Of a stretch of 64,000 bases of DNA, positions 34,709 to 51,159 are shown one piece after another. This DNA is from Deltaproteobacteria bacterium. GTDB taxonomy: Bacteria; Desulfobacterota; B13-G15; RBG-16-54-18. The notes below the pieces were generated by a model. The model searched no databases, had not been told where the DNA came from, and saw nothing but the letters and a program-made list of their open reading frames with translations. The stretch is from positions 36,506-100,505 of the forward strand of contig JAFGNJ010000027.1 in assembly GCA_016927065.1 (NCBI GenBank), in the 5' to 3' direction. The stretch's first letter is position 1; each line of letters opens with the position of its first letter. The translations under genes were made by a program, and so were the position numbers.

Positions 34709-35788
34709 TTGTCAATGCCTGAGATAAGGGAAAGATATAAGGATGTCAAGAAGATCTTGGTCAAAGGAACAAACTGGGTAGGCGATACCATTATATCGTT
34801 CCCTGCTGTTTACTCCTTACGCCGTCTCTTTCCGAAAGCCCATATTACTGTATTGACAAAATCCCATCTCACCGGGCTCTGGAAGGCTAATACAGATCTC
34901 GATGAAGTAATACCGTATGATATGCCCACAGGCGCGGGCAGGATCTTCGGTGAGTTGAAGGTAGCGCGACGCATCAGAAAGAGAGGTATAGACCTTGCAA
35001 TCGTTTTGCCCCGATCCTTTAGCTCAGCCTGGATGGTTTTTGGGGGAGGGATCCCCCATCGCATTGGGTATAAAGGTGAGGGACGAGATTGGCTTTTGAC
35101 CGAAAGGATCGACCGCACAGGCGATCTTTTGAGTCAGCACCGTATGTACTATTATCTCCATCTCATAGAGCGCATAGGACGCTGTTCCTCCCCCCCTGTT
35201 CCTTCATTATCCCTTAATGGAAATCAAGAAAACTGGTCCAATGCATTTCTTTCGCAGCATGGCCTAAAAGGCACGGTGCTGATTGGTTTTAACCCCGGGG
35301 CCACATATGGGGAGGCCAAGTGTTGGCCTTCGGAGCGATTTATAGAATTGGGGAGGAGATTGAGAAAGGAATATGGTGCCTTTATCCTTATCTTTGGCTC
35401 TTCTCGTCCTCAAGAAAAGGCATTAAATGTCATGATTGCCCAGGGAATCGGTGAAGGATGCCTCAATCTATCAGGGGAAACCTCGTTATTACAGTTGGCG
35501 GCGCTGCTTCGACACTGTCAGGTGTTAGTCACCAATGACACGGGTACCATGCACGTTGCGGCGGCGGTGGGCACACGGGTGATGGCCATATTCGGCCCCA
35601 CTGATCCCCGGACGACCTCACCCCTGGGGGAAGGAAATGTGGTCATCCGCAAGAAAGTTTCATGTAGCCCCTGTCTCAAAAGGGTATGTTCTGAAGATCA
35701 TCGATGTATGGATTTGATAGAGGTGGAAGAAGTTTATCATACGGTATGTGCGCACATACCTGGGGGAACGGTATCGGTGAAAGGATAA
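34709..35788 (+). CDS. ADP-heptose:LPS heptosyltransferase-like glycosyltransferase (GT9)
   Basis: GT9-like N-terminus KILVKGTNWVGDTIISFPA and C-terminal TNDTGTMHVAAAVG motif. Confidence 0.8.
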   Translation: MSMPEIRERYKDVKKILVKGTNWVGDTIISFPAVYSLRRLFPKAHITVLTKSHLTGLWKANTDLDEVIPYDMPTGAGRIFGELKVARRIRKRGIDLAIVLPRSFSSAWMVFGGGIPHRIGYKGEGRDWLLTERIDRTGDLLSQHRMYYYLHLIERIGRCSSPPVPSLSLNGNQENWSNAFLSQHGLKGTVLIGFNPGATYGEAKCWPSERFIELGRRLRKEYGAFILIFGSSRPQEKALNVMIAQGIGEGCLNLSGETSLLQLAALLRHCQVLVTNDTGTMHVAAAVGTRVMAIFGPTDPRTTSPLGEGNVVIRKKVSCSPCLKRVCSEDHRCMDLIEVEEVYHTVCAHIPGGTVSVKG

Positions 35789-36543
35789 TGGAAAAGATCT
35801 CTGTTTACGTCCTTACTTTTAATAATGAGAGGACTATTGAGCGGTGTTTAGAAAGTATCCGGTGGGCCGATGAGTTGGTGATCGTGGATTCTTACAGTAC
35901 CGATGACACGCTGGATAGATGTCGCCGCTTTACCAACCAGGTCTATCAACGAAAGTGGACAAACCACCAAGATCAATATCAGTATGCCGCTGATCTGACG
36001 GCGAACCGCTGGGTGATGTTCGTTGATGCCGATGAAGAGATCCCCCCTGCGTTGGCCCAGGAGATCCAAGAGGAATTAAAGATCAAAGACGGTCAGTGGG
36101 ATGGCTATATCGTACATCGACACACCTATTACCTGGGGCGATGGATACAGCACGGTGGGTGGTACCCTGACTATGAGATCAGATTATACGATCGGAACAA
36201 GGGAAAGTGGGCAGGGGGCCTGCATGCCAAGGTAACGGTGGATGGGAGGATCAAGACCTTGCAGAACCGTTATCACCATTATACTTATCGAGACATTTCC
36301 GATCAGATTCAGACTATTGACAGATATTCTCAGATCGCCTCGGAGGATATGCTTCGAGAGGGTAAAAATTTTAGTCTTATAAATATGTTGCTGAATCCAC
36401 CCTTTCGTTTTATAAAGGAGTATATCTTTAAAAGGGGTTTTCTGGATGGGATACCTGGTTTGATAATTATTGTCTCCACTATGTTTTATGTGTTTATTAA
36501 GCATGCCAAGCTGTGGGAACGGCAAAAAGGATTGAGTGAATAA
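35788..36543 (+). CDS. glycosyltransferase family 2
   Basis: SVYVLTFNNERTIERCL...VIVDSYSTDDT GT2 signature; TAATG stop-start overlap. Confidence 0.8.
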   Translation: MEKISVYVLTFNNERTIERCLESIRWADELVIVDSYSTDDTLDRCRRFTNQVYQRKWTNHQDQYQYAADLTANRWVMFVDADEEIPPALAQEIQEELKIKDGQWDGYIVHRHTYYLGRWIQHGGWYPDYEIRLYDRNKGKWAGGLHAKVTVDGRIKTLQNRYHHYTYRDISDQIQTIDRYSQIASEDMLREGKNFSLINMLLNPPFRFIKEYIFKRGFLDGIPGLIIIVSTMFYVFIKHAKLWERQKGLSE

Positions 36544-36544
36544 T

Positions 36545-37552
36545 ATGGCGGGCAAAGAGACCTTTGAGGGGAAACGGGCACTGATCACCGGAGGGTTAGG
36601 CTTTGTGGGAAGCAACTTGGCTATTCGGCTTGTGGAGGAAGGAGCTGCAGTTACTCTTGTGGATAATATGATCCCCCGTCAAGGTGGCAATTTGTTTAAC
36701 ATTTCTCCCATTGCCGACAAGGTCCATGTAAACTTCAGCGACGTGAGAAATCAACTCTCCATGGATCATCTTGTGCAGGGACAAGATTATATTTTCCATC
36801 TGGCTGGCCAGGTGAATCACGTGGAGAGCGTGCGCAATCCCATTCAGGACCTTGATATCAACTGCCGGGGCACCTTGGTTCTGTTAGAGGCCTGTAGGCG
36901 GTTCAACAGAGATGTCAGGATTATTTTTTCAGGTACCAGGGGAGAATACGGTGCAAGTGTCCATCTGCCCGTCGATGAAAACCATCCCACGAATCCTAAA
37001 GGAATATACGCCGTGACCAACTTAACGGCGGAAAAGATGATCCTCGTCTATCACGATATCCATAAGATCCACGGGGTTTGCCTCAGGATTACCAATACCT
37101 ACGGTGAGCGTCACCAGATGCACCACGATGAATTTGGTGTGCTGAATTGGTTCATCCGTCAGGCCATGGATGGTAAGACCATACCGGTCTTTGGGGATGG
37201 GATGATCTTGCGAGATTTTTTGTACGTAGAAGACGTGGTAGATTGTTTTTTGATGGTGACGACCTGTCCTCAGGCCTATGGCGAGGTATTCAACGTGGGC
37301 ACGGGGGTTCCCATCAATTTTGTTGATCTGGCCAAGAAGATTGTAGCGATCGCAGGTAGTGGCAGGATGGACTTCACCGAATTTACCCCGGAACGGAAAG
37401 AAGTAGAACCGGGGGACTACTATACTGATATTGCCAAGATCAAACAGGTGGTGGGCTGGGAGCCTAAGACCTCCCTTGATGAGGGGATCAGCAGGACCAT
37501 AGCGTTTTATCGACAATATAAAGACCACTATTGGAAGGACCCTGCTCAGTGA
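36545..37552 (+). CDS. NAD-dependent sugar epimerase/dehydratase (SDR family)
   Basis: Rossmann GGLGFVGSNL; catalytic YxxxK region. Confidence 0.85.
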   Translation: MAGKETFEGKRALITGGLGFVGSNLAIRLVEEGAAVTLVDNMIPRQGGNLFNISPIADKVHVNFSDVRNQLSMDHLVQGQDYIFHLAGQVNHVESVRNPIQDLDINCRGTLVLLEACRRFNRDVRIIFSGTRGEYGASVHLPVDENHPTNPKGIYAVTNLTAEKMILVYHDIHKIHGVCLRITNTYGERHQMHHDEFGVLNWFIRQAMDGKTIPVFGDGMILRDFLYVEDVVDCFLMVTTCPQAYGEVFNVGTGVPINFVDLAKKIVAIAGSGRMDFTEFTPERKEVEPGDYYTDIAKIKQVVGWEPKTSLDEGISRTIAFYRQYKDHYWKDPAQ

Positions 37553-38712
37553 AAATCCTCCATCTTTTTTCGGATTGGAAGTGGACGGGGGCGGCCGAAC
37601 CGGTGGTAAACCTTTGCTCGGCCCTCCAGCAGCGAGGACATGAGGTGGTTCTGGCCTATCGGTGTCCTCCCTTTGAGGTCTCGGAAAGTCTAGAAATAAG
37701 AGCGAGGGAGAAAGGCGTTTGTGGCACTGGTGTCTTTCGTCTTGAACCTATCTCTAAGCTTCACAAGATATATTTCTTAAAGGCACTTGTTGGTGATATC
37801 AAAGATATCGCGCGCTACATCGATCAGGATCAATTTGATATCGTCACTGTTCATAATTCTCATGATCATATCGTGGGGGGGTTAGCGGTGAAGGCTTCAA
37901 GAAGACATCCCCCGATAATCCGGATGGATCATAAGCAGAATTCCCTGAAGGCGGATCTTATCAGCAAGTGGTTTTTCAAGAGATATACCGATGGCCTTAT
38001 TACTTTTTCTAAAGGGGGAGAGGAGAGGTTGACGAACGGTTTAGGATTTCCTCCTGACAGGGTGATCAAAGTACCTACAGCCGTGGACCTCACCAGGTTT
38101 GATCCACAGAGGGGCTACAAAGATATGCGCCCGGTTTTCGGGATACCCCCCACATCTCCCGTCGTGGGGATCGCGGCCAGGTTTCAGAGATATAGAAGGA
38201 CCGATATCCTTTTGGAAGCCGTATCGCATCTGACTAAAGATGTTCCTGAGGTAAGGCTTTTATTGGTAGGCCACAGTAGCCAGATGCAAAAGAGTATCAT
38301 AGAACCTATGGAAAATTTAGGGATATCTTCTCACGTGATTTTAGCCGGGTATCGAATGGATGACTATGTCGATACCCTTGCCTGTATGGATGTCTTCGTC
38401 TTGCTTACCCCTGGTTCTGATGGAACGGCCCGTGCCCTGCGGGATGCCATGGCCATGGGGAAGCCGGTAGTTGCAACCACAAAAGGTATTTTGCCGGAGC
38501 TCGTACGTAATGGGGTTAACGGATTTATCGTACAGGAGACTCCGCAGGCCATCTGCCAAGCCCTTTTACCCCTCGTGAAGGATCAGCAATTGCGCCATTC
38601 AGTAGGAAAGGCTGCTCGGAAGACGGCCCAAGAGGAATTTCGCCTGGAGCGTCAGGCCGAAGCGGTGGAGGCGTTTTATCAAAAGATAGTGGAGGCGCTT
38701 CCTCGTTCATGA
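37531..38712 (+). CDS. glycosyltransferase family 4 (GT-B fold)
   Basis: GT-B C-terminal domain pattern; start may be GTG 37549 (GTGA overlap with upstream stop). Confidence 0.8.
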   Translation: MEGPCSVKILHLFSDWKWTGAAEPVVNLCSALQQRGHEVVLAYRCPPFEVSESLEIRAREKGVCGTGVFRLEPISKLHKIYFLKALVGDIKDIARYIDQDQFDIVTVHNSHDHIVGGLAVKASRRHPPIIRMDHKQNSLKADLISKWFFKRYTDGLITFSKGGEERLTNGLGFPPDRVIKVPTAVDLTRFDPQRGYKDMRPVFGIPPTSPVVGIAARFQRYRRTDILLEAVSHLTKDVPEVRLLLVGHSSQMQKSIIEPMENLGISSHVILAGYRMDDYVDTLACMDVFVLLTPGSDGTARALRDAMAMGKPVVATTKGILPELVRNGVNGFIVQETPQAICQALLPLVKDQQLRHSVGKAARKTAQEEFRLERQAEAVEAFYQKIVEALPRS

Positions 38713-39878
38713 AGATCGCCCTTGGCATACGAAATTTTTCTCCCGCCAAGGGTGGGGCTGAAAGATATCTGGTAGAGCTCACACAGTTTCTTGTGCAAGA
38801 GGGGCATGAGGTTCACGTCTTTACGCACAGTTTCGACAAAAGAATAGAAGGCCTTTATCTACATAACGTAACCCTTTTTCCTTTCCCCAAAGGGCTGCGC
38901 ATCCTCTCCTTCGCCTCGAAGTGTCATAAACTCATGAAACGGGATAATTTCGATGTGATCATAGGGGTGGGCAATACCTGGCAGGCAGATCTCTTACAGC
39001 CGCACGGAGGGGTCCATTGGAAATGGTTTTGGCGGAGTTTAAAGGCTTATCAAAGTCCGTGGCTTTGGGGCGCAAAGTTTCTGGGGAGGGTTTTGAGTCC
39101 TAAACAGTGGATTGAAGGGATCGTGGAGGATGCCCCTTATCGTACAGGGGTGAAACAGATTGTAGCCATTTCCGAGATGGTTAAGAGAGATATCGTTGAT
39201 TATTATGGTATTCCCGAGAAGAAAGTAGTGGTGATTTACAATGGTGTTGATACCGAATACTTCCACCCTCGTAACAAAAAATATAGGAAGAAGATCAGAA
39301 GTCAGTATGGTTTAGGCGCACAGGATGTCGTGCTCATATTCGTTGCGCATAACTTCAGGCTTAAAGGATTGCGATGCCTTATTCAGGCCCTACCTTTGAT
39401 TAAGAAAAAGAATGAGAAGATCAAACTTTTGGTGGTAGGCCGTGATAACAACGATCCTTATCGGCGTCTCGCCAAGAAGATGGGATGTGAGAGTGATGTC
39501 TTTTTTGCTGGGGGAGTACGGTATCTTGAGCGATATTATCCGAGTGCGGATATTTTGGTACATCCTACTTTTTACGATGCCTGTTCCTTGGTGGTTCTAG
39601 AGGCCTTGGCCAGTGGGGTGCCGGTGATCACGACGCAATATAATGGTGCAGGGGGAATCATTGCAGATGGGAAGGAAGGGTTTGTATTGGAAGATCCAAG
39701 AAAGGTGGAAATCTTAGCTAAAAAAATCTTGTATTTTGCAGATCCTATAAAGCTTAAAGAGGCCTCGTCTGCTGCCAGAAATTTAGCCAAAAGATATCCG
39801 CTAAAAACGTCTTATGGGGCAATGTTGAAGACCATGCAATCTATTGCGTCTAAAGACTCGCAGTTAAGACAGTTATGA
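38709..39878 (+). CDS. glycosyltransferase family 4 (GT-B fold)
   Basis: GT-B pattern incl. EALASGVPVITT motif; 4-nt overlap upstream. Confidence 0.8.
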   Translation: MKIALGIRNFSPAKGGAERYLVELTQFLVQEGHEVHVFTHSFDKRIEGLYLHNVTLFPFPKGLRILSFASKCHKLMKRDNFDVIIGVGNTWQADLLQPHGGVHWKWFWRSLKAYQSPWLWGAKFLGRVLSPKQWIEGIVEDAPYRTGVKQIVAISEMVKRDIVDYYGIPEKKVVVIYNGVDTEYFHPRNKKYRKKIRSQYGLGAQDVVLIFVAHNFRLKGLRCLIQALPLIKKKNEKIKLLVVGRDNNDPYRRLAKKMGCESDVFFAGGVRYLERYYPSADILVHPTFYDACSLVVLEALASGVPVITTQYNGAGGIIADGKEGFVLEDPRKVEILAKKILYFADPIKLKEASSAARNLAKRYPLKTSYGAMLKTMQSIASKDSQLRQL

Positions 39879-39887
39879 GTTAGGAAG

Positions 39888-40565
39888 ATGAATTTTTTCG
39901 ATTACGGCTTAATTAAATCATTTATTCAGGCATTTCGATACCAAGGGCCGGTAGTGGAGATTGGATCTTTAGTGGTAGACGAAAGTATGAAAGTTTTTGA
40001 TGTGAGGAGTCTATTTCCAAAGAAGAGCTTTTCTGGGGTGGATTTACGGCACGGTGCTGGAGTCGATATCATGGGTGATATTGAAGGATTACCCTTTCAG
40101 CAACATTCTATTGGTACGCTCCTGTGTCTTGACACCATCGAGCATGTCTGGGATGTCCATGCCGCTTTTAAAGAGATAAAAAGGGTATTAAAAAAGGATG
40201 GAATCGCCGTGATTTCCTCCGTATTCAATTTTAAGATTCACGCGTGTCCCCACGATTTTTGGCGGTTTACCCCTGAAGCCTTAGATAGACTCACCAAGGG
40301 TTTCCCGTACAAAATCTTAGGATATCAAGGATATCGAAAACGACCGAGGCATGTTTTTACCGTCGTCTTTGGCAAGGAGTATCGCACTCAAGATATTGAG
40401 AGTCAGATAACGGAATTTAAAAAGTTACTTCAAGGAGAGGCAGTTAGATATTTTTCGGTCTTTGACAGGATGCGTCACTATATTGCTAGCCTCTTTGCCA
40501 AGAAACCGCTCATGGATTTTAGGTACTATAACCACATAGAGGTTCTTCACAAGATTAAGGTTTGA
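39888..40565 (+). CDS. class I SAM-dependent methyltransferase
   Basis: Methyltransferase-fold motifs (VEIGS..., LDTIEHVWD, LKKDGIAVIS). Confidence 0.65.
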   Translation: MNFFDYGLIKSFIQAFRYQGPVVEIGSLVVDESMKVFDVRSLFPKKSFSGVDLRHGAGVDIMGDIEGLPFQQHSIGTLLCLDTIEHVWDVHAAFKEIKRVLKKDGIAVISSVFNFKIHACPHDFWRFTPEALDRLTKGFPYKILGYQGYRKRPRHVFTVVFGKEYRTQDIESQITEFKKLLQGEAVRYFSVFDRMRHYIASLFAKKPLMDFRYYNHIEVLHKIKV

Positions 40566-40592
40566 TTATTCCCTACATTAGGGGAGATTGCC

Positions 40593-41180
40593 ATGAATGT
40601 GACAAAAGCAATAAAAAGGACAATTATTCCTCCTGACCCCTTTTTTATGAATAACAACAAGCTTTATAAAAAGTATCAAATTGGCGATTGGACATATGGT
40701 ACCCCTAAGGTGTTCTCATGGCGTGAAGGTACGACCTTAAAGATTGGACGGTTCTGTGCAATTGCTGATGGTGTAATAATTTTATTGGGCGGAGAACACA
40801 GGATAGATTGGGTGACCACCTACCCGTTTACTAAGCTCTTTCCGAAGGCCAAGGGGTTTACGGGCCATCCTCGTTCCAGAGGTAATGTTATTATAAAAAA
40901 TGATGTGTGGATTGGTACAGATGCATTAATCCTATCGGGCGTTACGATAGGTAACGGCGCTGTGATAGCTGCCCGTAGTGTTGTCAAGGAAAATGTGTTA
41001 CCTTATTCAATAGTTGCTGGGAATCCAGCAAAGCATATTAAGTTTCGGTTTAGTAAGTCAATAATAGATGATTTACAGAAAATTGCGTGGTGGAATTGGC
41101 CTTTGTCAAAAATTGAGGAAGCATGGCCATTGTTGCTTTCGTCGGATATAGGAGCATTTGTAGACAAGTATAAAGCGTGA
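40593..41180 (+). CDS. hexapeptide-repeat acetyltransferase (left-handed beta-helix)
   Basis: Hexapeptide repeats VWIGTDALILSGVTIGNGAVIAARSVV, NPAKHI C-terminus. Confidence 0.8.
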   Translation: MNVTKAIKRTIIPPDPFFMNNNKLYKKYQIGDWTYGTPKVFSWREGTTLKIGRFCAIADGVIILLGGEHRIDWVTTYPFTKLFPKAKGFTGHPRSRGNVIIKNDVWIGTDALILSGVTIGNGAVIAARSVVKENVLPYSIVAGNPAKHIKFRFSKSIIDDLQKIAWWNWPLSKIEEAWPLLLSSDIGAFVDKYKA

Positions 41181-41318
41181 ACACTGTTTGATGCTTTTGA
41201 CGATCAATATGTACATGCAAAAATTATTATAGCAAAATTGAAAAATTAAGAATGAGATCGTCAAAAAAGTTTCTAACGATCAACAGAGATGCCATGATTT
41301 TGTAATAACTAAGGTGAT

Positions 41319-41930
41319 TTGATGATAACTTGGAGTCAGCTTGTCAAAGGTCGCGATCAGATCCACGAGCGCTATCCTACGATATGGGGACTAATGTTGA
41401 TCAAAAGGCCCTCCAGATTGGCAAAGAGTAGGTATGCGCATCCGCGATGTGGGGAGAATAGAAGAATTGACAATAGAGTGAAACATATTTATCCTGATAT
41501 CTGTTATGAAAATATGTATGAAGATCAAAAATTGCTTCATGATTATTAGTCATTAGATGCGATTGATGGGTAATTTGATCTCATTATACTTTTGAAAGCC
41601 ATAGAACATTTGGAGCTGGGAGAAGGGATGACGATGTTAAGCCGGCTCAATGAATTGCTCGTAGATGGAGGTAGGTTGGTTATCAGTGCTCCCAATATTT
41701 TTAACCCCAGCCGGTTTTGGTTTAAAGCGACTCACAAGGTAGCCTATAGCTATGAAGAGTTGGGAGGGATTGTACTTGGTCAGAGCTTTGATGTATCGGG
41801 AATTTATCGTACCTCTAATGATTCCTTTTTAAAGTATTTTTGGCGTCTTACCCTCATTTGTTTCCCGCCTAGAATTTTATATAAGGATTTTGTCAAATCA
41901 ATTCTTATTACGACCTGCAAAAGAGGTTGA
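41319..41930 (+). pseudogene. decayed copy of the locus-specific methyltransferase paralog (intact at 44697 and 47091)
   Basis: Two short ORFs with near-identical nucleotide stretches to 44697..45335 but missing the SAM-binding middle and broken frame. Confidence 0.6.
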
Positions 41931-42016
41931 TCTATAGTTCATCGCAAGGTGTGAGTGGATAAGAACATGATAGAAGCCAATCACTTGATTAAAAAACTCT
42001 TAAAAGGAGATAACAG

Positions 42017-42736
42017 GTGAATGTGAAAGAACTTTCAATTTTTATCAATAACACCCAAAGAGACTTGTACAATTTTATTTATCAAAAAATTTTTGTTAAT
42101 TTTAAATTAAAGAAAAATGTCATTGACCATTTTCATAAACTTTATTATGAATCACATAAAGTAACTTGGGAAAACACATTTTGGTTAGGTATTCAAGCCC
42201 ATAAATGCCCTTTAGATCTCTGGATTTACCAAGAGATTATCTTTGAGATTAAGCCAGATATAATAATAGAATGTGGAACATTTCATGGTGGAAGTGCTTT
42301 GTTTTTAGCATCTATATGTGATTTGTTAAATAAGGGGAAAATTATTTCTATAGATATAGAAAACAAAAAAGACAGACCAAAACATGAAAGAATCACATAT
42401 TTACTTGGTTCTTCAACTTCTGAAGAAATCGTAGAGAAAGTTCAAATCTTCATAAAAAACATTGATAGGATTATGGTCATTTTGGATTCAGATCATAGCA
42501 AAGAACATGTCCTAAGGGAATTAGAAATTTATAGTAAATTTGTGACAAAAGGCAGTTATATCATTGTTGAGGACACAAACATTAATGGCCATCCTATAGG
42601 ACCAGACTTTGGGCCAGGTCCGATGGAGGCAGTTAAGGAATTTTTAAAGATGAAAAGAGATTTTGCCATAGATAAGTCAAGAGAAAAATTTTATCTAACT
42701 TTTAATCCAGATGGATATCTCAAAAGGGTAAGATGA
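42017..42736 (+). CDS. CmcI-family (cephalosporin hydroxylase-like) sugar O-methyltransferase
   Basis: ECGTFHGGSALFLA motif; strongly AT-rich coding; GTG start. Confidence 0.65.
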   Translation: MNVKELSIFINNTQRDLYNFIYQKIFVNFKLKKNVIDHFHKLYYESHKVTWENTFWLGIQAHKCPLDLWIYQEIIFEIKPDIIIECGTFHGGSALFLASICDLLNKGKIISIDIENKKDRPKHERITYLLGSSTSEEIVEKVQIFIKNIDRIMVILDSDHSKEHVLRELEIYSKFVTKGSYIIVEDTNINGHPIGPDFGPGPMEAVKEFLKMKRDFAIDKSREKFYLTFNPDGYLKRVR

Positions 42737-42803
42737 CAAGAAGAAAATACTTTTTCGTCTGAACTACCAAAAGAAGATATCTTTTTATCTGAACTATTGT
42801 GAA

Positions 42804-43463
42804 ATGGATAGTAAACGAAGGAACTTATATTATTTCAGCGTTCGAAATGATCTTATCCGACTTATCCCTCTCCATGCAAAACGAATTTTAGAAGTGGGAT
42901 GTGCAGGTGGTATGACCGGGAAAGCATTAAGGGAGAAAGGATTTAAAGAAATTGTAGGTATTGAGGTCAATAGAAAAATCGCTCAAAAAGGGAAATTGTA
43001 TTACGATAAATTAATTATTGGAGATGTAGAGAAAATAAAACTTCCATTTGAAAAAGGGCATTTCGATTGTATTCTATATGGTGATGTCTTAGAGCATTTG
43101 GTGGATCCGTGGAAAGTGTTAAAAGAGCACAACGCATTGTTAAAGTTGGAGGGGGTCATTATCTGTAGTATCCCGAACGTACGACATTACAAGATTATCA
43201 AAAAACTGGTCTTCAGTGGAACTTGGGAGTATACTGAGTATGGGATATTGGATAGAACCCATCTCCGTTTTTTCACACTGGATTCAATTAGAAAGATGTT
43301 AAGAGAGACGGGTTTTGAGATCAGAGATTTGATAAAGCGCCCTTCGGGCGCAAAATGGTTGAAGGTTTTAAATCGACTTTTAAAGAATCTAATAATTAAT
43401 TTTTTGGTGGGGCAATATACGGTTGTGGCGGTAAAAAGAGAAGAGGCGGAAGGTAGCGTATAG
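42804..43463 (+). CDS. class I SAM-dependent methyltransferase
   Basis: Motif I ILEVGCAGGMTG, motif post-II GDVLEHLVDP. Confidence 0.8.
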   Translation: MDSKRRNLYYFSVRNDLIRLIPLHAKRILEVGCAGGMTGKALREKGFKEIVGIEVNRKIAQKGKLYYDKLIIGDVEKIKLPFEKGHFDCILYGDVLEHLVDPWKVLKEHNALLKLEGVIICSIPNVRHYKIIKKLVFSGTWEYTEYGILDRTHLRFFTLDSIRKMLRETGFEIRDLIKRPSGAKWLKVLNRLLKNLIINFLVGQYTVVAVKREEAEGSV

Positions 43464-43626
43464 TCAAGATGGGCATTTCGGCTCGATGTTAAAAAAAATT
43501 GCTTGCATCTCGCTGATCTCCTTGATGCGACAATTTTTGATATTTTGATATTAATATTTTTAAAAATAGTTCGTATGAGGGGTCATATAACTTCTCATTT
43601 GACAAATCTTCTTCGAACGGGCAAAG

Positions 43627-44538
43627 ATGGCTGAACTTCAGGTAAGCATTGTCATTCCATGCTACAATAGCGCAAAATTTATTGATACAACCTTGCAAGC
43701 AGTATTCAATAGTACTTACAAGGACTTCGAGGTACTAGTTATAGACGATGGTTCCACAGATGGTACCAAGAAGGTTTTACAAGAGAAAGGTTGGATCAAA
43801 AAGGTCCGATACGTTTACCAGGAAAACAAAGGCATAGCTGGTGCACGCAATGCGGGGATTACAATCGCTCAAGGGAAATACATAAGTCTTTTAGATCATG
43901 ATGACCAACCGTTACCTGAAAAATTGGAAAGAATGGTTTCTTACCTGAATAACCACCCTGAATTTAAGATGGCTTACTCGCCATGTATTATTGAACGTAT
44001 TGATAAAGGTGGAGAGCGCTATAAACAGGGTATATACTCATCACATACGCCCCGTTGGCTTCGAAACAAGTATGAAGGTGATCTTTTTGAAAATCTATTT
44101 TATATGCGCATTCTTATTACCAGTGTTCTTATGTATAAGGAGGCGGCTTTGGCCGTCGGTCTTTTTGACGAAACCTTTAAGGTATGTGAAGATCTAGAGT
44201 TCTACTTGAGATTTGGCGCACAGTATAGAATTGGTTTTATTAAAGAACCTTGCAATGTTCATATCGAACACTTTTCAAATAGCAGCAAGCATTTTGCCGA
44301 TTTATACCCTACCTATGCAATTCTTGCGTATAATCGTCACTATCAAAGCCTAAAAAAGAAAAGTTCCAGGGCCGAAAAGATTTATCGTGAGCGCATGACA
44401 GCTGCCTACAGAGGGCTTGCAGACGTATCATTAAAGAACGACAATAGAAAGGGCGCAAGAAAATATGCTGTTGATGCAATCCGCATGAATCCATACCATC
44501 CGAAATATTATTTTAAAATGTTTAAAACTTGGCTATGA
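43627..44538 (+). CDS. glycosyltransferase family 2
   Basis: VSIVIPCYNSAKFI...VLVIDDGSTDGT, DxD-like DHDD. Confidence 0.85.
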   Translation: MAELQVSIVIPCYNSAKFIDTTLQAVFNSTYKDFEVLVIDDGSTDGTKKVLQEKGWIKKVRYVYQENKGIAGARNAGITIAQGKYISLLDHDDQPLPEKLERMVSYLNNHPEFKMAYSPCIIERIDKGGERYKQGIYSSHTPRWLRNKYEGDLFENLFYMRILITSVLMYKEAALAVGLFDETFKVCEDLEFYLRFGAQYRIGFIKEPCNVHIEHFSNSSKHFADLYPTYAILAYNRHYQSLKKKSSRAEKIYRERMTAAYRGLADVSLKNDNRKGARKYAVDAIRMNPYHPKYYFKMFKTWL

Positions 44539-44696
44539 ATTGAGCAAGAAAGTGTTCTTGGAAATTTTTGATATTGGGAAATATGTTCAACATCATCTGG
44601 TAAACAGAAGAACAAGCTAGCTTTTTAGTACAAAAGTGTTTTAATAAACTATCCTACACTGAGTTAGTAAGAAACAGACAAATATAGAGGGGTAGT

Positions 44697-45335
44697 ATGT
44701 TAGATATGTTATATTGGAGTCAGCTTGTCAAAGGTCGCGATCAGATCCACGAACGATATCCTACGATATGGGGTTTACGGTTAATCAAGAGACCCTCCAG
44801 GTTGGTTAAAACCCTTCTTCGTCCAGGTATGCGCATCCTTGATGTCGGCGCGAGTGACAGAAGGATGGAGAGAGGAATTAAGGAGATTTACCCTAACGTT
44901 ATTTACAAAAGCATGGATGTTGATCGCGGATTGCCTCATGATTATTATACTTTGGATGGAATAAATGAGCAGTTCGATCTTATTATGCTTTTTGAAGTTA
45001 TAGAGCATCTGGAGTTGGAAGTAGGGATAAAAATGTTAAGTCGGCTCAATGAATTGCTCGTACATGGAGGTAGGTTGGTTATCAGTACTCCCAATATTTT
45101 TAACCCCAGCCGATTTTGGTTCGATGCGACTCACAAGGTAGCCTATAGCTATGAAGAGTTGGGAGGGATTTTGCTTGGTCAGGGGTTTGAAGTACTGGAT
45201 ATCTACCGCACCTTTAACGCTTCATTTCCAAAGTATTTTGTGCGCCTCACCCTTTTCTACCCCTTGCATAGGATTTTAAATGTAGATTTTGCCAAGTCTA
45301 TTGTATTTCTGGCCCAAAAAAGAGGGAACCGGTGA
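44697..45335 (+). CDS. methyltransferase-fold protein, locus-specific paralog family (copy 2)
   Basis: ILDVGASDRRMERG motif I-like, EVIEHLE motif; paralog of 47091 and of the decayed copy at 41319. Confidence 0.65.
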   Translation: MLDMLYWSQLVKGRDQIHERYPTIWGLRLIKRPSRLVKTLLRPGMRILDVGASDRRMERGIKEIYPNVIYKSMDVDRGLPHDYYTLDGINEQFDLIMLFEVIEHLELEVGIKMLSRLNELLVHGGRLVISTPNIFNPSRFWFDATHKVAYSYEELGGILLGQGFEVLDIYRTFNASFPKYFVRLTLFYPLHRILNVDFAKSIVFLAQKRGNR

Positions 45336-45380
45336 TGAGAAAATATTACCTTCATATACCAACAGCAAGCAGAGTGATGT

Positions 45381-45986
45381 ATGCGCATTGCTTATAAACT
45401 ATCAAAATTCTTTTTTAAATTGGCCAATCAAAAGCAGGTTATCGAATGGGTAAAAATATATGGTGCGTTTGATAAGACTAATTACGAAGATTATACAATA
45501 CGCAATCTTAAGAGCGAGTCCTCAATCTACCATGGCGAGCTTATTAAATGGGCACAAGACATTATGCCTTCTCCTCGCAAAGTTTTACTATCAGGTGATT
45601 GCAACAACCCCGCACAATTTGTGCAGGAAAAAATTCGAGCTAAGGAGATGTACACAGCAGGTCTATTAGATGTTGATTTCAAATGGGGTTTCGATGAAGA
45701 TCCTCCCACAATGGGCCAGTTTGACCTTATTATCAGTCAAGCAATTTTGGAGCATCTGCTAAATCCTTATAAGCATATGCACGATCTGGCTGGTCTTTTG
45801 GTGCCTGATGGTTATTTGATAGTGCATACTGTAATCCCTGGTTTTTGATATCATCGATATCCTATTGATGCCTTTCGTTTTTTCCCTGACTGGTTTGAAG
45901 AAATAGCGAAGAGGTTAAATTTTTCGATAGTTAAAAAAAGAATCAAACGGACCCACATATTTTATATGTATAAAAAAATCAGTTAA
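45381..45986 (+). pseudogene. methyltransferase-fold-like ORF interrupted by an in-frame TGA at 45846-45848
   Basis: Reading frame continues through the TGA for 45 more codons to TAA at 45984; TGA replaces a likely Trp codon. Confidence 0.5.
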
Positions 45987-46060
45987 GAGCAGGAAAGATT
46001 TGAATGTAGAAGAGCTTTGATTTGCTATGTGTATTATAAAACTAAGACACAAGGGTGACA

Positions 46061-47044
46061 ATGAAGGTAACCATCTTACTCTCGCGTAATGCTGGTACAA
46101 GATATCGATTTCCTCAGTTTATACAAGCCCTTACCAGAGAAGGAATACAGGCAGAAATATATAGGTTTCAATCTTCTCTTCCACTTTTTCTTAAGTTGTT
46201 ACAAGATTTGAAGAAAGCAGATATCGTAGTAATATTGAGAAAACTCTTATCACCATGGAAACAGCAGTTAATCCGAAGATTCGCAAAAAAAATTGTTTTT
46301 GAATATGATGATTCAATTATGTATCGATCTTCACGTTGGGAGAATCAATACTCCCGTACCCGGAGAGCACGATTTAAAGATATGGTGAAGATATGCGACC
46401 TCATCATTGCTGGCAATCAATTTCTCAAGGGAGAAGCGACGAAGTACGTGAATGAGGAAAAAGTGCATGTTATACCCACGGTCGTTGATATTGAAAGATA
46501 TGTACGAAAGCAATATCATGATTCAAAAGATGAAGTGATAATTGGCTGGTTTGGAAGCAAGGGGACCCTCTATTACCTCAAGAAACTTGTTCCGGCGCTT
46601 ACAGAAATCGGCAAAAGATTTCCCTTTGCTCAATTGAAGATCGTATGCAATGATTTTCTTGATATCCCCAATATGAAAGTGATAAAAAAAGAATGGTCAG
46701 AAACGGATGAGGTTGCTGATCTTCAGAGCTTTGATATCGGGTTGGGTCCTTTGACGGATGATGTATGGACACGAGGTAAGTGTGGTCTGAAACTGGTTCA
46801 ATATCTAGCAGTGGGGATCCCAGTCATTTGTTCCCCGGTAGGAGCGAATAAGGAAATTGTTAGCGATGGTGATGTTGGATTATGGGCCCGGGATACGCGG
46901 GAATGGATAGAGAAACTTAGTTTACTCATTGAAAAACCAGAGATGAGAAAAAAGATGGGGGAAAAAGGAAGAGAGAGAATAGAGAAGCAATATTCTCTTC
47001 AGGCCGTTGCCCCTAAATTAATTGATATACTAAGCAGATTGTGA
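46061..47044 (+). CDS. GT-B fold glycosyltransferase (GT4-like), paralog of 48477
   Basis: Similarity to 48477 protein (YSRTR...FLK..A.K, WFGSKGTLYYL vs WIGDHGSIHYL); ATG 46061 preceded by AAGGGTGA. Confidence 0.75.
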   Translation: MKVTILLSRNAGTRYRFPQFIQALTREGIQAEIYRFQSSLPLFLKLLQDLKKADIVVILRKLLSPWKQQLIRRFAKKIVFEYDDSIMYRSSRWENQYSRTRRARFKDMVKICDLIIAGNQFLKGEATKYVNEEKVHVIPTVVDIERYVRKQYHDSKDEVIIGWFGSKGTLYYLKKLVPALTEIGKRFPFAQLKIVCNDFLDIPNMKVIKKEWSETDEVADLQSFDIGLGPLTDDVWTRGKCGLKLVQYLAVGIPVICSPVGANKEIVSDGDVGLWARDTREWIEKLSLLIEKPEMRKKMGEKGRERIEKQYSLQAVAPKLIDILSRL

Positions 47045-47090
47045 AATATCTTTTTAAGATAATTGGAATGTCTATTTCCAAGGAATAACG

Positions 47091-47741
47091 ATGTTGGACT
47101 GGAGTCAAATAATTCATTATCGTGATCAAATTCATGAACGTTATCGGAAGATATGGAACATTCCTTTGATTAAGAGACGGTTTAGCCTCTTAGAGAGAAA
47201 CATTCGTCCTGGGATGCGCCTTCTCGATGTGGGGGCTGGAGAGCGAGGGATGGAAGATAAGATCGTGAAAAAACACAATGGAGTAATATACAAAAGTATG
47301 GACATAGATCGTCGTCTCCACCATGACTATTACTCGCTAGATGATATTGATGAACAGTTTGATCTTGTTTTGCTCCTCGATGTCATTGAGCATGTGGAGT
47401 TGGAGGAAGGGGTGAAGATGTTACAGCGAATCAATGAACTCCTCGTCGATGGTGGGAATTTGATTATCAATACGCCGAACATATTTAATCCTAATCGTTT
47501 TTGGTTAGATGCTACTCATAAAGTGGCATACAGCTATGAGGAGCTGGGTGGTATCTTGCTCAGCCAAAGCTTCGATGTGTTGGAAATCTATCGTACCTAT
47601 AATGATTCATTCCCAAAGTATATTCTCCGCCTTACACTTTGTTATCCCCTGCATAGAATGTTAAATGTTGATTTTGCAAAATCTATTATAATCTTGGCGA
47701 GCAAGAAGAAGGATACTGTAGAAGTACGGGTGTCTGAATGA
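47091..47741 (+). CDS. methyltransferase-fold protein, locus-specific paralog family (copy 3)
   Basis: Full-length similarity to 44697 protein; LLDVGAGERGMED motif I. Confidence 0.65.
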   Translation: MLDWSQIIHYRDQIHERYRKIWNIPLIKRRFSLLERNIRPGMRLLDVGAGERGMEDKIVKKHNGVIYKSMDIDRRLHHDYYSLDDIDEQFDLVLLLDVIEHVELEEGVKMLQRINELLVDGGNLIINTPNIFNPNRFWLDATHKVAYSYEELGGILLSQSFDVLEIYRTYNDSFPKYILRLTLCYPLHRMLNVDFAKSIIILASKKKDTVEVRVSE

Positions 47742-48469
47742 GCGTTAGTAGAATAAGGGCCCATAATTTGGTAATAGAAATCCTGAAAAATGCGGGAAAG
47801 CCAGGAAAAATTCTGGATGCTCCTGCGGGAACCGGTACAATATCTAAAACATTGCAGGATGCAGGATTTGAAGTCTATGCCGCTGATATAACACCTGAGT
47901 TGTTTAAGCTTCCAGATATTCATTGTGAGAAGGCAGACCTCAATTCCCGTCTCCCTTATAAGGATGGATTTTTTGATTATATTTTAAATTCCAATGGTAT
48001 TGAACATCTGGAGGACCAGTATAATTTTGTCCGGGAGTGTTACCGGATTCTAAAGCCAAACGGCAAACTACTTATCACGACCCCTAATATCCTGAACTTA
48101 AAAGCGCGGGTTGCATATATGTTACTTGGCTTCCATACGTTTCATGATAGACCCCACGATGAAGTAGGTGATTACGAGGGCGGCGGGCATATTAATATGG
48201 CCTCCTACTTCGATTTGCGAGTAAATCTGCACAGAAACGGGTTTAAAATCATCTCAATTTCAACGCATATGTACAGTGCTACTGCTCTGTTTTTTTCCTT
48301 TCTTGTTCCGTTTGTGTATGTGATGATGTTTAAATCCTTTAAGAGAGAAAAGAATAGAGAACAGAGAGTGAGGAACAAAGACATCGCAAAACATGTTTTA
48401 TCAGCCGATCTTCTGTTTGGTAAAAAGCTTTTTGTGCTCGCAGAAAAAGATCACCGTTATAAAAAATAG
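47738..48469 (+). CDS. class I SAM-dependent methyltransferase
   Basis: Motif I ILDAPAGTGTIS, YRILKPNGKLLITTPN. Confidence 0.8.
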   Translation: MSVSRIRAHNLVIEILKNAGKPGKILDAPAGTGTISKTLQDAGFEVYAADITPELFKLPDIHCEKADLNSRLPYKDGFFDYILNSNGIEHLEDQYNFVRECYRILKPNGKLLITTPNILNLKARVAYMLLGFHTFHDRPHDEVGDYEGGGHINMASYFDLRVNLHRNGFKIISISTHMYSATALFFSFLVPFVYVMMFKSFKREKNREQRVRNKDIAKHVLSADLLFGKKLFVLAEKDHRYKK

Positions 48470-48476
48470 TTACGCT

Positions 48477-49475
48477 ATGCGAGTTCTCTTTCTCATCCAA
48501 GGTTGGGATGTAGCAGCTAGTCGGTATAGAGTACTTCAATATCTGCCATATCTGGAGAAAAGGGGGGTCGAGACCCACGTAGCCACGTATCCCAGGGGTA
48601 TTACCGACTTTGCAACGTTCTTGAGGAGGGTTGCAGATTATGATGTGCTCTTTCTTCAGAGAAAAAGATATAATCCACCTTTTTTGCAGCTTTTACGCTG
48701 GAGGGCACAGGGGATCGTGTATGACTTTGACGATGCTGTGATGTATAGAAACTCTACGGCGCCATCACCTTACTCCAGAACCCGTCAGAAAAGATTTGCC
48801 CGTATCATAAGGGCCGCAGATTATGTCATTGCTGGTAATAATTTCTTGAAAGATCAAGCTTCGAAATTTACCGAACAGGTAACTGTGATACCTACGTCAA
48901 TTGACCGGGATCGATATGATGTTAAAGACTACCAAGAAAAAAAGAACAGGGTATCGATCGGGTGGATCGGAGATCACGGGAGCATCCACTATCTGCAAAA
49001 AATGCGGTCTATCTTTGAAAAACTGGGCAGGAGATATCCTGACCTCGAGCTTAAAATCATCTGCGATACCTTCTTTGACTGTAAAAACATTGAGGTTGTC
49101 AAAAAGCCGTGGAGCCAGAAAGAAGAGGTTGAGGACTTGAAAAGCCTAGACATCGGTGTGATGCCTCTCTTGGATGATCCCTGGTCGTGGGGCAAATGTG
49201 GACTCAAGATACTGCAGTATTATGGAGTAGGAGTGCCGGTAGTCTGCACGCCCGTGGGTGTCAACAGGGATGTGGTACAAAATGGGGTGAACGGTTTTTG
49301 GGCCATGACCAATGACGAATGGATTGAGAAGCTCTCCGTATTGATTGAAGACCCTTCCCTGCGGCAAAAGATGGGGTTACGAGGCCGAGAGTTGGTGAGA
49401 AAGTCATATTCCATACAAGGGTGTGCGTCAATATTTTATGGGGTGTTGGATGAGGTGGCCCGTGGGGGTGTCTGA
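48477..49475 (+). CDS. GT-B fold glycosyltransferase (GT4-like), paralog of 46061
   Basis: Paralog of 46061 protein; ATG at 48477. Confidence 0.75.
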   Translation: MRVLFLIQGWDVAASRYRVLQYLPYLEKRGVETHVATYPRGITDFATFLRRVADYDVLFLQRKRYNPPFLQLLRWRAQGIVYDFDDAVMYRNSTAPSPYSRTRQKRFARIIRAADYVIAGNNFLKDQASKFTEQVTVIPTSIDRDRYDVKDYQEKKNRVSIGWIGDHGSIHYLQKMRSIFEKLGRRYPDLELKIICDTFFDCKNIEVVKKPWSQKEEVEDLKSLDIGVMPLLDDPWSWGKCGLKILQYYGVGVPVVCTPVGVNRDVVQNGVNGFWAMTNDEWIEKLSVLIEDPSLRQKMGLRGRELVRKSYSIQGCASIFYGVLDEVARGGV

Positions 49476-51159
49476 TGATCTATCATATAAGCGGGGGGTG
49501 AAGGGATGGCGATGGACCCTTGTCGAAGGCACGGCTCAGGAGTTACCCCCCTCGTTGCTCGATGATCCAGAGCGATTTCTGTGCAAACACCCTCCACAAA
49601 AAGTTTTAAAAGAATCCCCTGTCCGAACGGTCTCGATTATTTCAGGGCCTCGTGGAAGGCTCTTCCTGAAACGCTATAAGATAAAAAAATTCAAAGAGAA
49701 ATTTAAATACCTCGCGGTCCCCTCCAAGGCACACAAAGAATGGTTGATGGGGCGTCAAGCACTGCGCAAAGGAATCCCCACCCCCATGCCTTTGGCCATA
49801 GCCGAGAGGCGAAAAGGGATTTTTTTACAAGATGCCTTTCTCATAACCCAAGCCATTTTCCCTTCAAGCTCCTTCATTGAATTGATTTTGGACGGAAGAC
49901 ATAAGGACCTTCTATCCCCTGCAGCCCGATTAATCCATCAGATCCATGAAGCCGGTCTCTTCCATCAGGATCTGCATGCCGGCAATATCTTGGTCGGCGA
50001 AAATAATAACAAGCTTTACCTCATTGACCTCCATCGTTCCAGATTCGTAAAGAGTGTTTCCCAACGCAGGAAACTATGGAACCTGGCGCAGTTTTTTTAT
50101 TCTCTCAAAGGATTAATTTCGAATAAAAATAAAAAGGTTTTTTTAAATAGGTACGATAAAGAAGGGAAGACATTTAACAAGGGATTTGAGGAAACTTTGC
50201 GGAGAATCGAGAGGGTGGAGGAGCGGATTTATCGGCGGCATATGAAGAGCAGGACGAAGCGATGTCTCAAAGACAGCGGAGGATTTTATGTCGCCAAGGA
50301 TGATTCCTGGCGGATATGGGCACGGAGGGGGTGGGAGTTCCAGACATTGCTGCAGCTCATAAAAAAACACAAGAAAATTGTTGACAAGGGTACCGATGGC
50401 TTGATCAAGACAGATCGCCGTTCAGCTATCTCCCTTTTCAATTATAGGAAGACCAGGATTTGCGTGAAGGAATACCGTTATAGGGGGGGGCTGGGATGCA
50501 TAAAGGACTGTTTCAGAAGATCCAGGGCCCGCAGGGGATGGCTGATGGGCAATGGGTTGGTGGTCAGGGGCGTCCCAGGGATTACGCCGCAGGCCCTCTT
50601 GGAGCGCAGGGTGAGAGGGTTTTTAAAGGATGCCTTTCTCATCATGGAGACCCCCCCCGGCTATGTCGAGCTTGACCGCTATATGGTTCGGTCTTTTGAA
50701 GGCTTCCCTCATAAAAAACTTAAGGCAAGGACCTTTCTGATGGCCTTGGCAGGGTTCATAGCTCACCTGTATACGCTCAGGATTTCTCATAGGGACCTGA
50801 AGGCCTGCAACATCATGGTGCGGGAGGAGCACGTGGGGTGGGAATTCGGTTTAGTCGATATGGATGATATCCGTTTGGACAAAAACATCCGCACCAGGAG
50901 GTTTGTGAAGGCATTGATTCAATTACATACGTCTACTCCCCTTTTTATCGGCATGGACGATCGAATTGCATTCCTGAGCGAGTATCTGCGGTTGATCGGC
51001 CGAGGTGACATAAGGGAGATCATCAGCGCGGTGAGCAGGGGCAGTAGGGGAAGACAATTGGTCTATGTAGACCCTCAGGGTGATGTGATCATGGATGTTG
51101 CTTGGGAAAAGACTTGCGCTTCCTGTTGTGAACCCGCTCTTTCAAAAGAGGACTTGTGA
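49423..51159 (+). CDS. tandem two-domain lipopolysaccharide (Kdo/WaaP-type) kinase-like protein
   Basis: Two kinase catalytic loops: FHQDLHAGNILV...LIDLHRS and SHRDLKACNIMV...LVDMDD; start uncertain. Confidence 0.7.
   Translation: MRQYFMGCWMRWPVGVSDDLSYKRGVKGWRWTLVEGTAQELPPSLLDDPERFLCKHPPQKVLKESPVRTVSIISGPRGRLFLKRYKIKKFKEKFKYLAVPSKAHKEWLMGRQALRKGIPTPMPLAIAERRKGIFLQDAFLITQAIFPSSSFIELILDGRHKDLLSPAARLIHQIHEAGLFHQDLHAGNILVGENNNKLYLIDLHRSRFVKSVSQRRKLWNLAQFFYSLKGLISNKNKKVFLNRYDKEGKTFNKGFEETLRRIERVEERIYRRHMKSRTKRCLKDSGGFYVAKDDSWRIWARRGWEFQTLLQLIKKHKKIVDKGTDGLIKTDRRSAISLFNYRKTRICVKEYRYRGGLGCIKDCFRRSRARRGWLMGNGLVVRGVPGITPQALLERRVRGFLKDAFLIMETPPGYVELDRYMVRSFEGFPHKKLKARTFLMALAGFIAHLYTLRISHRDLKACNIMVREEHVGWEFGLVDMDDIRLDKNIRTRRFVKALIQLHTSTPLFIGMDDRIAFLSEYLRLIGRGDIREIISAVSRGSRGRQLVYVDPQGDVIMDVAWEKTCASCCEPALSKEDL

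Follow-up and report, generated by a model that had tools for sequence, protein, structure and literature searches.

An in-frame TGA in an accessory methyltransferase gene of a deltaproteobacterial surface-glycan cluster: probably a very young nonsense change

In bacterial LPS, O-antigen and capsule clusters, nonsense pseudogenes are known in which a single point mutation puts a premature stop into an accessory glycan-modifying gene, leaving its remainder and the surrounding cluster intact. Bacterial selenoprotein genes present a similar picture at first sight, with an in-frame UGA followed by conserved coding sequence. Here, we describe a gene from the metagenome-assembled genome (MAG) of a deltaproteobacterium that has both of these appearances, and whose product is related to the class I SAM-dependent methyltransferases typified by 3l8d, NodS and CmoM. 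The gene lies in a stretch of 64 kb that was analysed as a whole and is called the window below. We consider it likely that its internal TGA arose by an ordinary TGG>TGA nonsense change that hit an accessory glycan methyltransferase gene only very recently.

A methyltransferase gene interrupted at codon 156

An ATG at position 45381 of the + strand opens a reading frame of 155 codons that stops at a TGA (45846-45848). Past this TGA, the same frame runs on for 45 further sense codons and meets no stop until the TAA at 45984-45986, and the sequence around the site (45837-45869) reads CCT GGT TTT TGA TAT CAT CGA TAT CCT ATT GAT. The original prediction had placed the in-frame TGA and the closing TAA at exactly these positions and had translated the region as VIPGF-stop-YHRYPIDAFRFFPDWFEE, which we reproduced without change. 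The elements of the gene are the following:

45381..45986, + strand: complete ancestral gene of 201 codons and a stop, encoding an uncharacterised class I SAM-dependent methyltransferase
45381..45848, + strand: present open reading frame, 155 codons, ending at the premature TGA
45846..45848, + strand: premature TGA, which is TGG (Trp156) in the closest orthologues; stop at codon 156 of 201
45849..45986, + strand: stranded 3' part, 45 sense codons plus TAA, with the best conserved motif of the family, YHRxPIDxxRFFPDWFE, and the two final beta strands

In NCBI, the 155-aa product is recorded as MBN1255777.1 (P0002; 100% identity, 159,540-bp contig) under the title 'MAG: methyltransferase domain-containing protein [Deltaproteobacteria bacterium]', as an ordinary protein and not as a pseudogene.

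An open run of 45 codons is only mildly unlikely to arise by chance in DNA of ~38% GC (p ~0.05, estimated from base composition), and it is homology to the C-terminus of the orthologue P0001 that settles the coding status of the run. P0001 is a protein of 201 aa that is 76% identical to the read-through product and whose gene has the same neighbours in the same order. At least 20 contigs, drawn from several JGI metagenomes and one Logan assembly, carry this gene; of the 45 downstream residues, 40 agree with the C-terminus of P0001 (89%, E = 1e-27).

A search with the read-through translation as query returned 150 proteins at E <= 0.001, most of which are 199-215 aa long, cover 97-100% of the query and are continuous through the TGA position. 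Homologues that terminate at this position had been named at the outset as the observation that would speak against an interrupted gene; among the ~150, the sole protein that ends there is P0002, the product of the same contig. When 38 sequences were aligned, the best conserved part of the family proved to be the one behind the stop, and its invariant residues (Y157, H158, R159, P161, D163, R166, F167, P169, D170, F172, I193, F194 and Y195) are all present in the window. Since homologues span the site and the downstream residues are conserved, 45381-45986 represents one ancestral gene of 201 codons. We rejected a split gene with a separately translated C-terminal part for want of a start codon or listed open reading frame in 45849-45986, where the first start codon comes only at Met196 and no + strand frame of at least 30 aa is listed.

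Position 156 is Trp in the six closest homologues (P0001 and P0003-P0007, 70-77% identical). At the codon level, the syntenic orthologues (loci L002 and L007) read CCT GGT TTT TGG TAT CAT where the window reads CCT GGT TTT TGA TAT CAT, an otherwise identical six-codon context that points to a single G>A transition at 45848, in agreement with the TGG-to-TGA change originally proposed. The corresponding loci (L002-L007) share a gene order consisting of a methyltransferase, the target and a GT1 gene, followed downstream by a WaaP/Kdo-type kinase and an ArsA/ParA-like ATPase on the opposite strand. Across 154 family matches, by comparison, the site takes 17 different amino acids (P 54, Q 20, N 17, F 10, ... 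W 4, C 1) and is never a stop. Conservation of Trp among homologues, which had been suggested as a check, thus holds for the closest clade and gives way to hypervariability in the family as a whole.

Sequence profiles link the product to the methyltransferases only marginally. It scores 21.8 bits against Pfam Methyltransf_11 (cut-off 21.2) and 23.9 bits against Methyltransf_23 (cut-off 27), several homologues carry precomputed PF13489/PF08241 matches, and NCBIfam and PDB sequence searches gave only weak, generic methyltransferase matches far below their thresholds. With curated profiles matching so marginally, the family appears to be an unnamed branch of the class I methyltransferases. An AlphaFold model of the orthologue P0001, built from a 59-sequence alignment (mean pLDDT 93.1, pTM 0.90), showed the class I fold, with an alternating beta/alpha core and the strands of a seven-stranded sheet in the expected order (strands 67-71, 89-94, 114-120, 140-151, 181-189 and 192-199; helices 161-165 and 169-178). 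When this model was compared with the PDB using Foldseek, the top matches were all class I SAM-dependent methyltransferases (probability 1.00, TM 0.5-0.62, identity 10-17%), among them 3l8d, NodS (3ofj/3ofk), CmoM (8k5l), O-methyltransferases and NNMT. Together with the weak Methyltransf_11/23 matches, the fold bears out the earlier description of the gene as methyltransferase-like.

In common with the class I methyltransferases, motifs II and III (FDLIISQAILEHL and GGYLIVHT) align to the Pfam methyltransferase models. Unlike these enzymes, the family has LLAGE(N) in place of the glycine-rich motif I and a C-terminal YHRxPIDxxRFFPDWFE signature of its own, and its distance from solved class I structures is considerable, at only 10-17% identity and TM 0.5-0.6 for P0001. 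In the P0001 model, the fifth strand (140-151) is followed by a surface loop that contains residue 156; this segment (~151-170) is predicted with less confidence. Truncation at this residue removes helices 161-165 and 169-178, strands 181-189 and 192-199 and the 13 invariant residues, and the model suggests that the 155-aa product probably neither folds properly nor binds substrate, and is inactive.

The family itself is widespread and occurs in polysaccharide/LPS gene clusters. Its members (loci L008-L157; proteins P0001-P0120) come from Desulfobacterota, Nitrospirota, Thiobacillaceae, Rhodocyclales, Actinomycetota, CPR bacteria and a Nanoarchaeota MAG, and share an invariant C-terminal YHRxPIDxxRFFPDWFE...HIFY. 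For this family, Pfam and NCBIfam models exceed their cut-offs marginally at most, and no close solved structure was found. Two family copies stand ~1.5 kb apart in one locus (L032, 5153-5209 and 6630-6686, - strand), for example in a Thiobacillus denitrificans MAG, and also in L067 and L079. Several other members show frame breaks at other places; in L157 (Ga0209048_10246579), an in-frame TAA at 582-584 replaces the conserved Glu105 (GAA>TAA) and the frame continues, an independent case of nonsense change or error.

The surrounding glycan cluster

The target lies within a run of + strand genes from ~34.7 to 51.2 kb, which looks like an LPS core/outer-core type cluster with many methylation steps:

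34709-35788, + strand: GT9 heptosyltransferase
35704-36543, + strand: GT2
36536-37552, + strand: NAD-dependent epimerase/dehydratase
37531-38712 and 38709-39878, + strand: two GT4 glycosyltransferases
39888-40565, + strand: Methyltransf_11 protein
40593-41180, + strand: hexapeptide acyltransferase
41319-41930, + strand: decayed methyltransferase copy (pseudogene), third copy of the 212-aa methyltransferase gene
42017-42736, + strand: CmcI-type O-methyltransferase
42804-43463, + strand: Methyltransf_23 protein
43627-44538, + strand: GT2
44697-45335, + strand: 212-aa methyltransferase (Methyltransf_23) with a TGA stop; in related contigs, the gene immediately upstream of P0001 is its orthologue
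45381-45986, + strand: target methyltransferase
46055-47044, + strand: GT1 of GT-B type (Glycos_transf_1 / Glyco_trans_1_2), 78% identical to the gene after P0001
47091-47741, + strand: 216-aa methyltransferase
47738-48469, + strand: 243-aa methyltransferase
48393-49475, + strand: GT1
49423-51159, + strand: two-domain WaaP/Kdo-family kinase

The last of these genes (49423-51159, + strand) encodes 578 aa with a Kdo/WaaP-family LPS kinase domain (86-244) and a Pkinase-like region (404-469), and overlaps the preceding GT1 gene by ~50 nt.

DNA alignment of the decayed copy at 41319-41930 revealed two deletions, of 11 nt and 4 nt, as well as in-frame stops, which leave open fragments of 76 aa and 112 aa, so that gene decay is already documented in this cluster. 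This pseudogene is unannotated and older than the lesion in the target; its paralogues are the genes at 44697-45335 and 47091-47741. An LPS-core-like cluster that holds a frameshifted methyltransferase pseudogene is a setting in which the decaying glycan-modification gene of the original prediction fits.

Part of the run (44697-49475, + strand) is a duplicated module, in which the 212-aa methyltransferase, the target and a GT1 protein of 329 aa are followed by the 216-aa methyltransferase, the 243-aa methyltransferase and a GT1 protein of 360 aa. Identity is 68% between the 212- and 216-aa methyltransferases and 43% between the two GT1 proteins. We considered the target and the gene at 47738-48469 as possible paralogues and rejected the pairing, as a generic methyltransferase motif is the only match between them. 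A Logan contig of the same region breaks inside the 44697 copy, probably because of the duplicated module.

The centre of the cluster (40000-48000) has 35-40% GC, compared with ~50% in the flanking housekeeping genes, and compared with the orthologous loci L002-L006, the window holds additional genes, namely the CmcI-type methyltransferase at 42017, the methyltransferase at 42804, the GT2 at 43627 and the 216- and 243-aa methyltransferases. Low GC and extra genes together suggest horizontally acquired, fast-changing content. A gene neighbourhood conserved across the whole family, which might have pointed to the substrate, was not found; neighbours vary, and a common order is confined to the close orthologues. 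From the cluster context, we infer that the methyl acceptor of the target would be a sugar of an LPS-type glycan.

Accessory surface-glycan genes are often phase-variable in pathogens, and the target is a gene of this kind, which is why a contingency gene that is reversibly switched off has to be weighed. Such a gene had been offered as one option from the outset, and the local sequence speaks against it. In 45200-46200, no tandem repeat was found, the longest homopolymers are 6-7 nt with none at the defect, and the defect itself is an in-frame base substitution instead of a change in length that would shift the frame. We regard phase variation as extremely improbable here, and this part of the original prediction falls away.

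Age, authenticity and decoding of the TGA

We compared the interrupted gene with its neighbours and with the family to gauge how far it has drifted. With 76% identity to its orthologue, the read-through product falls inside the span of 66-88% that 12 intact neighbouring genes give when compared with the same contig. At positions with at least 90% agreement in the family, the window deviates at 3 of 40 upstream of the stop (E24V, E73D and E105D) and at 0 of 20 downstream, values that fall within the range of intact homologues. By Nei-Gojobori estimates against L002, dN/dS came to 0.126 before the stop (codons 1-155) and 0.04 after it (codons 157-201), at dS > 1, and in the stranded 3' part no further stops, frameshifts or raised dN/dS were found. 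We therefore rejected a long-standing pseudogene, given a divergence no greater than that of the neighbouring genes and the retention of conserved residues. An undamaged downstream part means that the stop is very recent, that it is an error, or that it is passed by translation.

Error would mean that all or most cells carry TGG and that the A called at 45848 reflects a consensus or base-calling mistake or a low-frequency variant, the gene being intact and functional. A perfectly kept downstream part is what a gene with no true stop should show, the source is a MAG, and short low-coverage contigs of other family members (P0096 and P0101) display error-like frame breaks. The allele is, moreover, seen in the assemblies of one strain: no other public assembly of the same strain was present in the collections searched, where the next closest protein is 76-77% identical. 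Weighing against this, a Logan assembly made from run SRR13394437 agrees with the window at every one of 1060 nt around the gene (100% identity), the TGA included. The agreement of the NCBI MAG and the Logan assembly, which most probably derive from reads of the same run, shows that the TGA is not an artefact of a single assembler. The length of both contigs (159.5 kb and 26.5 kb) also speaks for reasonable coverage, substitution errors seldom survive in a short-read consensus, and the presence of a true pseudogene in the same cluster makes gene loss plausible there. A literature search for run SRR13394437 returned no mention of it, and a broader one contributed nothing useful. On balance, an artefact or minority allele appears unlikely, and we infer that the cells themselves, beyond the consensus, carry the A at 45848.

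If the base is real, the TGA could be passed by translation in several ways, the simplest being an altered genetic code. TGA terminates 11 of the 13 neighbouring cluster genes, at lengths matching those of their orthologues, and is the commonest stop among open reading frames of at least 200 aa in the window (26 of 57). Its normal use as a stop in the neighbours, at orthologue-matching lengths, excludes an alternative code, and reading TGA as Trp or Gly was rejected on these grounds.

Alternatively, the UGA might be recoded as selenocysteine by SelB and a SECIS element, making the protein a selenoprotein methyltransferase. The UGA is in frame and has a conserved continuation, Deltaproteobacteria are often selenoprotein-rich, and one distant homologue (P0059, locus L048) has Cys at the aligned site. 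That Cys, however, is the only one in 154 sequences, at a hypervariable loop position outside any catalytic or redox motif; no catalytic or redox residue would vary this much. The orthologues have Trp there, neither Cys nor Sec, and no partner Cys lies nearby. The weak 6-bp AT hairpin that had been pointed out in the original prediction is indeed present (GATATC-ATC-GATATC, 45847-45861), and all hairpins near the UGA are short and A/U-rich, with 3-nt loops that begin 1-4 nt after the UGA. Folding of the 81 nt from 45840 to 45920 gave -15.8 kcal/mol, no more stable than shuffled sequences (z = -0.83), and revealed no SECIS-like structure 3' of the UGA; a search of Rfam produced no match, even at E <= 10.

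We further searched for recoding elsewhere in the family with a degenerate DNA pattern encoding G-x-[codon]-Y-H-R-x-P-x-D-x-x-R-F-[FY]-P-D-W-F, in which the variable codon was either TGA or NNN. While the NNN version retrieved 107 stretches from metagenome records and 43 from species-representative genomes, the TGA version matched once in the window and had 0 matches in 241 million metagenome records and 185,579 species-representative genomes, so that in these two large collections no family member has TGA at the site. No tRNA gene, and hence no tRNA-Sec, was detected in the 64-kb window, and no sel genes among the window's open reading frames that were scanned. The target thus differs from bacterial selenoprotein genes in having neither a SECIS-like structure nor a Cys/Sec pattern, in its ancestral Trp and in the placement of the UGA in a variable loop. 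Selenocysteine had been judged unlikely before these searches, and after them we hold it to be highly improbable.

A leaky stop is a subtler proposal, in which near-cognate tRNA-Trp or a suppressor tRNA reads through the UGA at a low but useful rate, so that the enzyme is down-tuned and not dead. In bacteria, tRNA-Trp normally inserts Trp at leaky UGA codons, and Trp is the ancestral residue; given a loop site that accepts 17 residues, the read-through product would probably work. The strong purifying selection on the downstream codons also fits, as an undecayed 3' part is expected if the stop is usefully read through. If this proposal were true, the cell would retain the methyltransferase in small amounts, and the undamaged 3' part would reflect continuing selection and not recency. 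The selection signal, however, spans the whole divergence from the orthologue (dS > 1) and is uninformative on the time since the mutation, and none of the 154 family members has a stop at this site. The base that follows the UGA is U, and UGA-U has been described as the most efficiently terminated UGA context in E. coli. Neither a stimulatory structure after the UGA nor a tRNA gene in the window was found, and 11 of 13 neighbours end in TGA. We consider useful read-through improbable.

There remains the reading of the TGA as a true stop of recent origin. As judged from the sequence, the nonsense event would be very recent, the stranded 3' part being free of detectable damage. The original prediction had named a recent nonsense mutation or a sequencing error as most likely, and both the TGG of the orthologues and the lack of downstream decay agree with it.

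Proposed course of events and comparison with known nonsense pseudogenes

In the course of events that we favour, the ancestral product would have been a 201-residue class I SAM-dependent methyltransferase encoded in an LPS-core-like cluster of an uncultured deltaproteobacterium. One G>A transition would then have changed codon 156 from TGG (Trp) to TGA, and translation would end at this codon because TGA is the organism's usual stop. The resulting 155-residue product would be without two helices, the last two strands and YHRxPIDxxRFFPDWFE, and would most probably be inactive; the cluster's glycan would miss one methyl group.

This suggests that the LPS-type surface glycan of an uncultured deltaproteobacterium has just lost one methylation step. 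The consequences are mainly for annotation, in that the label of a probable pseudogene or truncated gene would suit MBN1255777.1 better than that of a normal methyltransferase-domain protein. Separately, the analysis yielded a widespread, unnamed methyltransferase family with the distinctive motif YHRxPIDxxRFFPDWFE.

Compared with the nonsense pseudogenes described from bacterial surface-polysaccharide clusters, the target stands apart in that it is seen in a single environmental MAG, at the level of assemblies, and carries no visible secondary damage. It resembles them in having a decayed copy nearby (41319-41930), and the AT-rich cluster with its duplicated genes and decayed methyltransferase copy presents the usual picture of fast surface-glycan gene turnover. 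A nonsense knockout of such a gene is an already known kind of event and nothing new, and the interrupted methyltransferase would take its place among these pseudogenes as a very young example.
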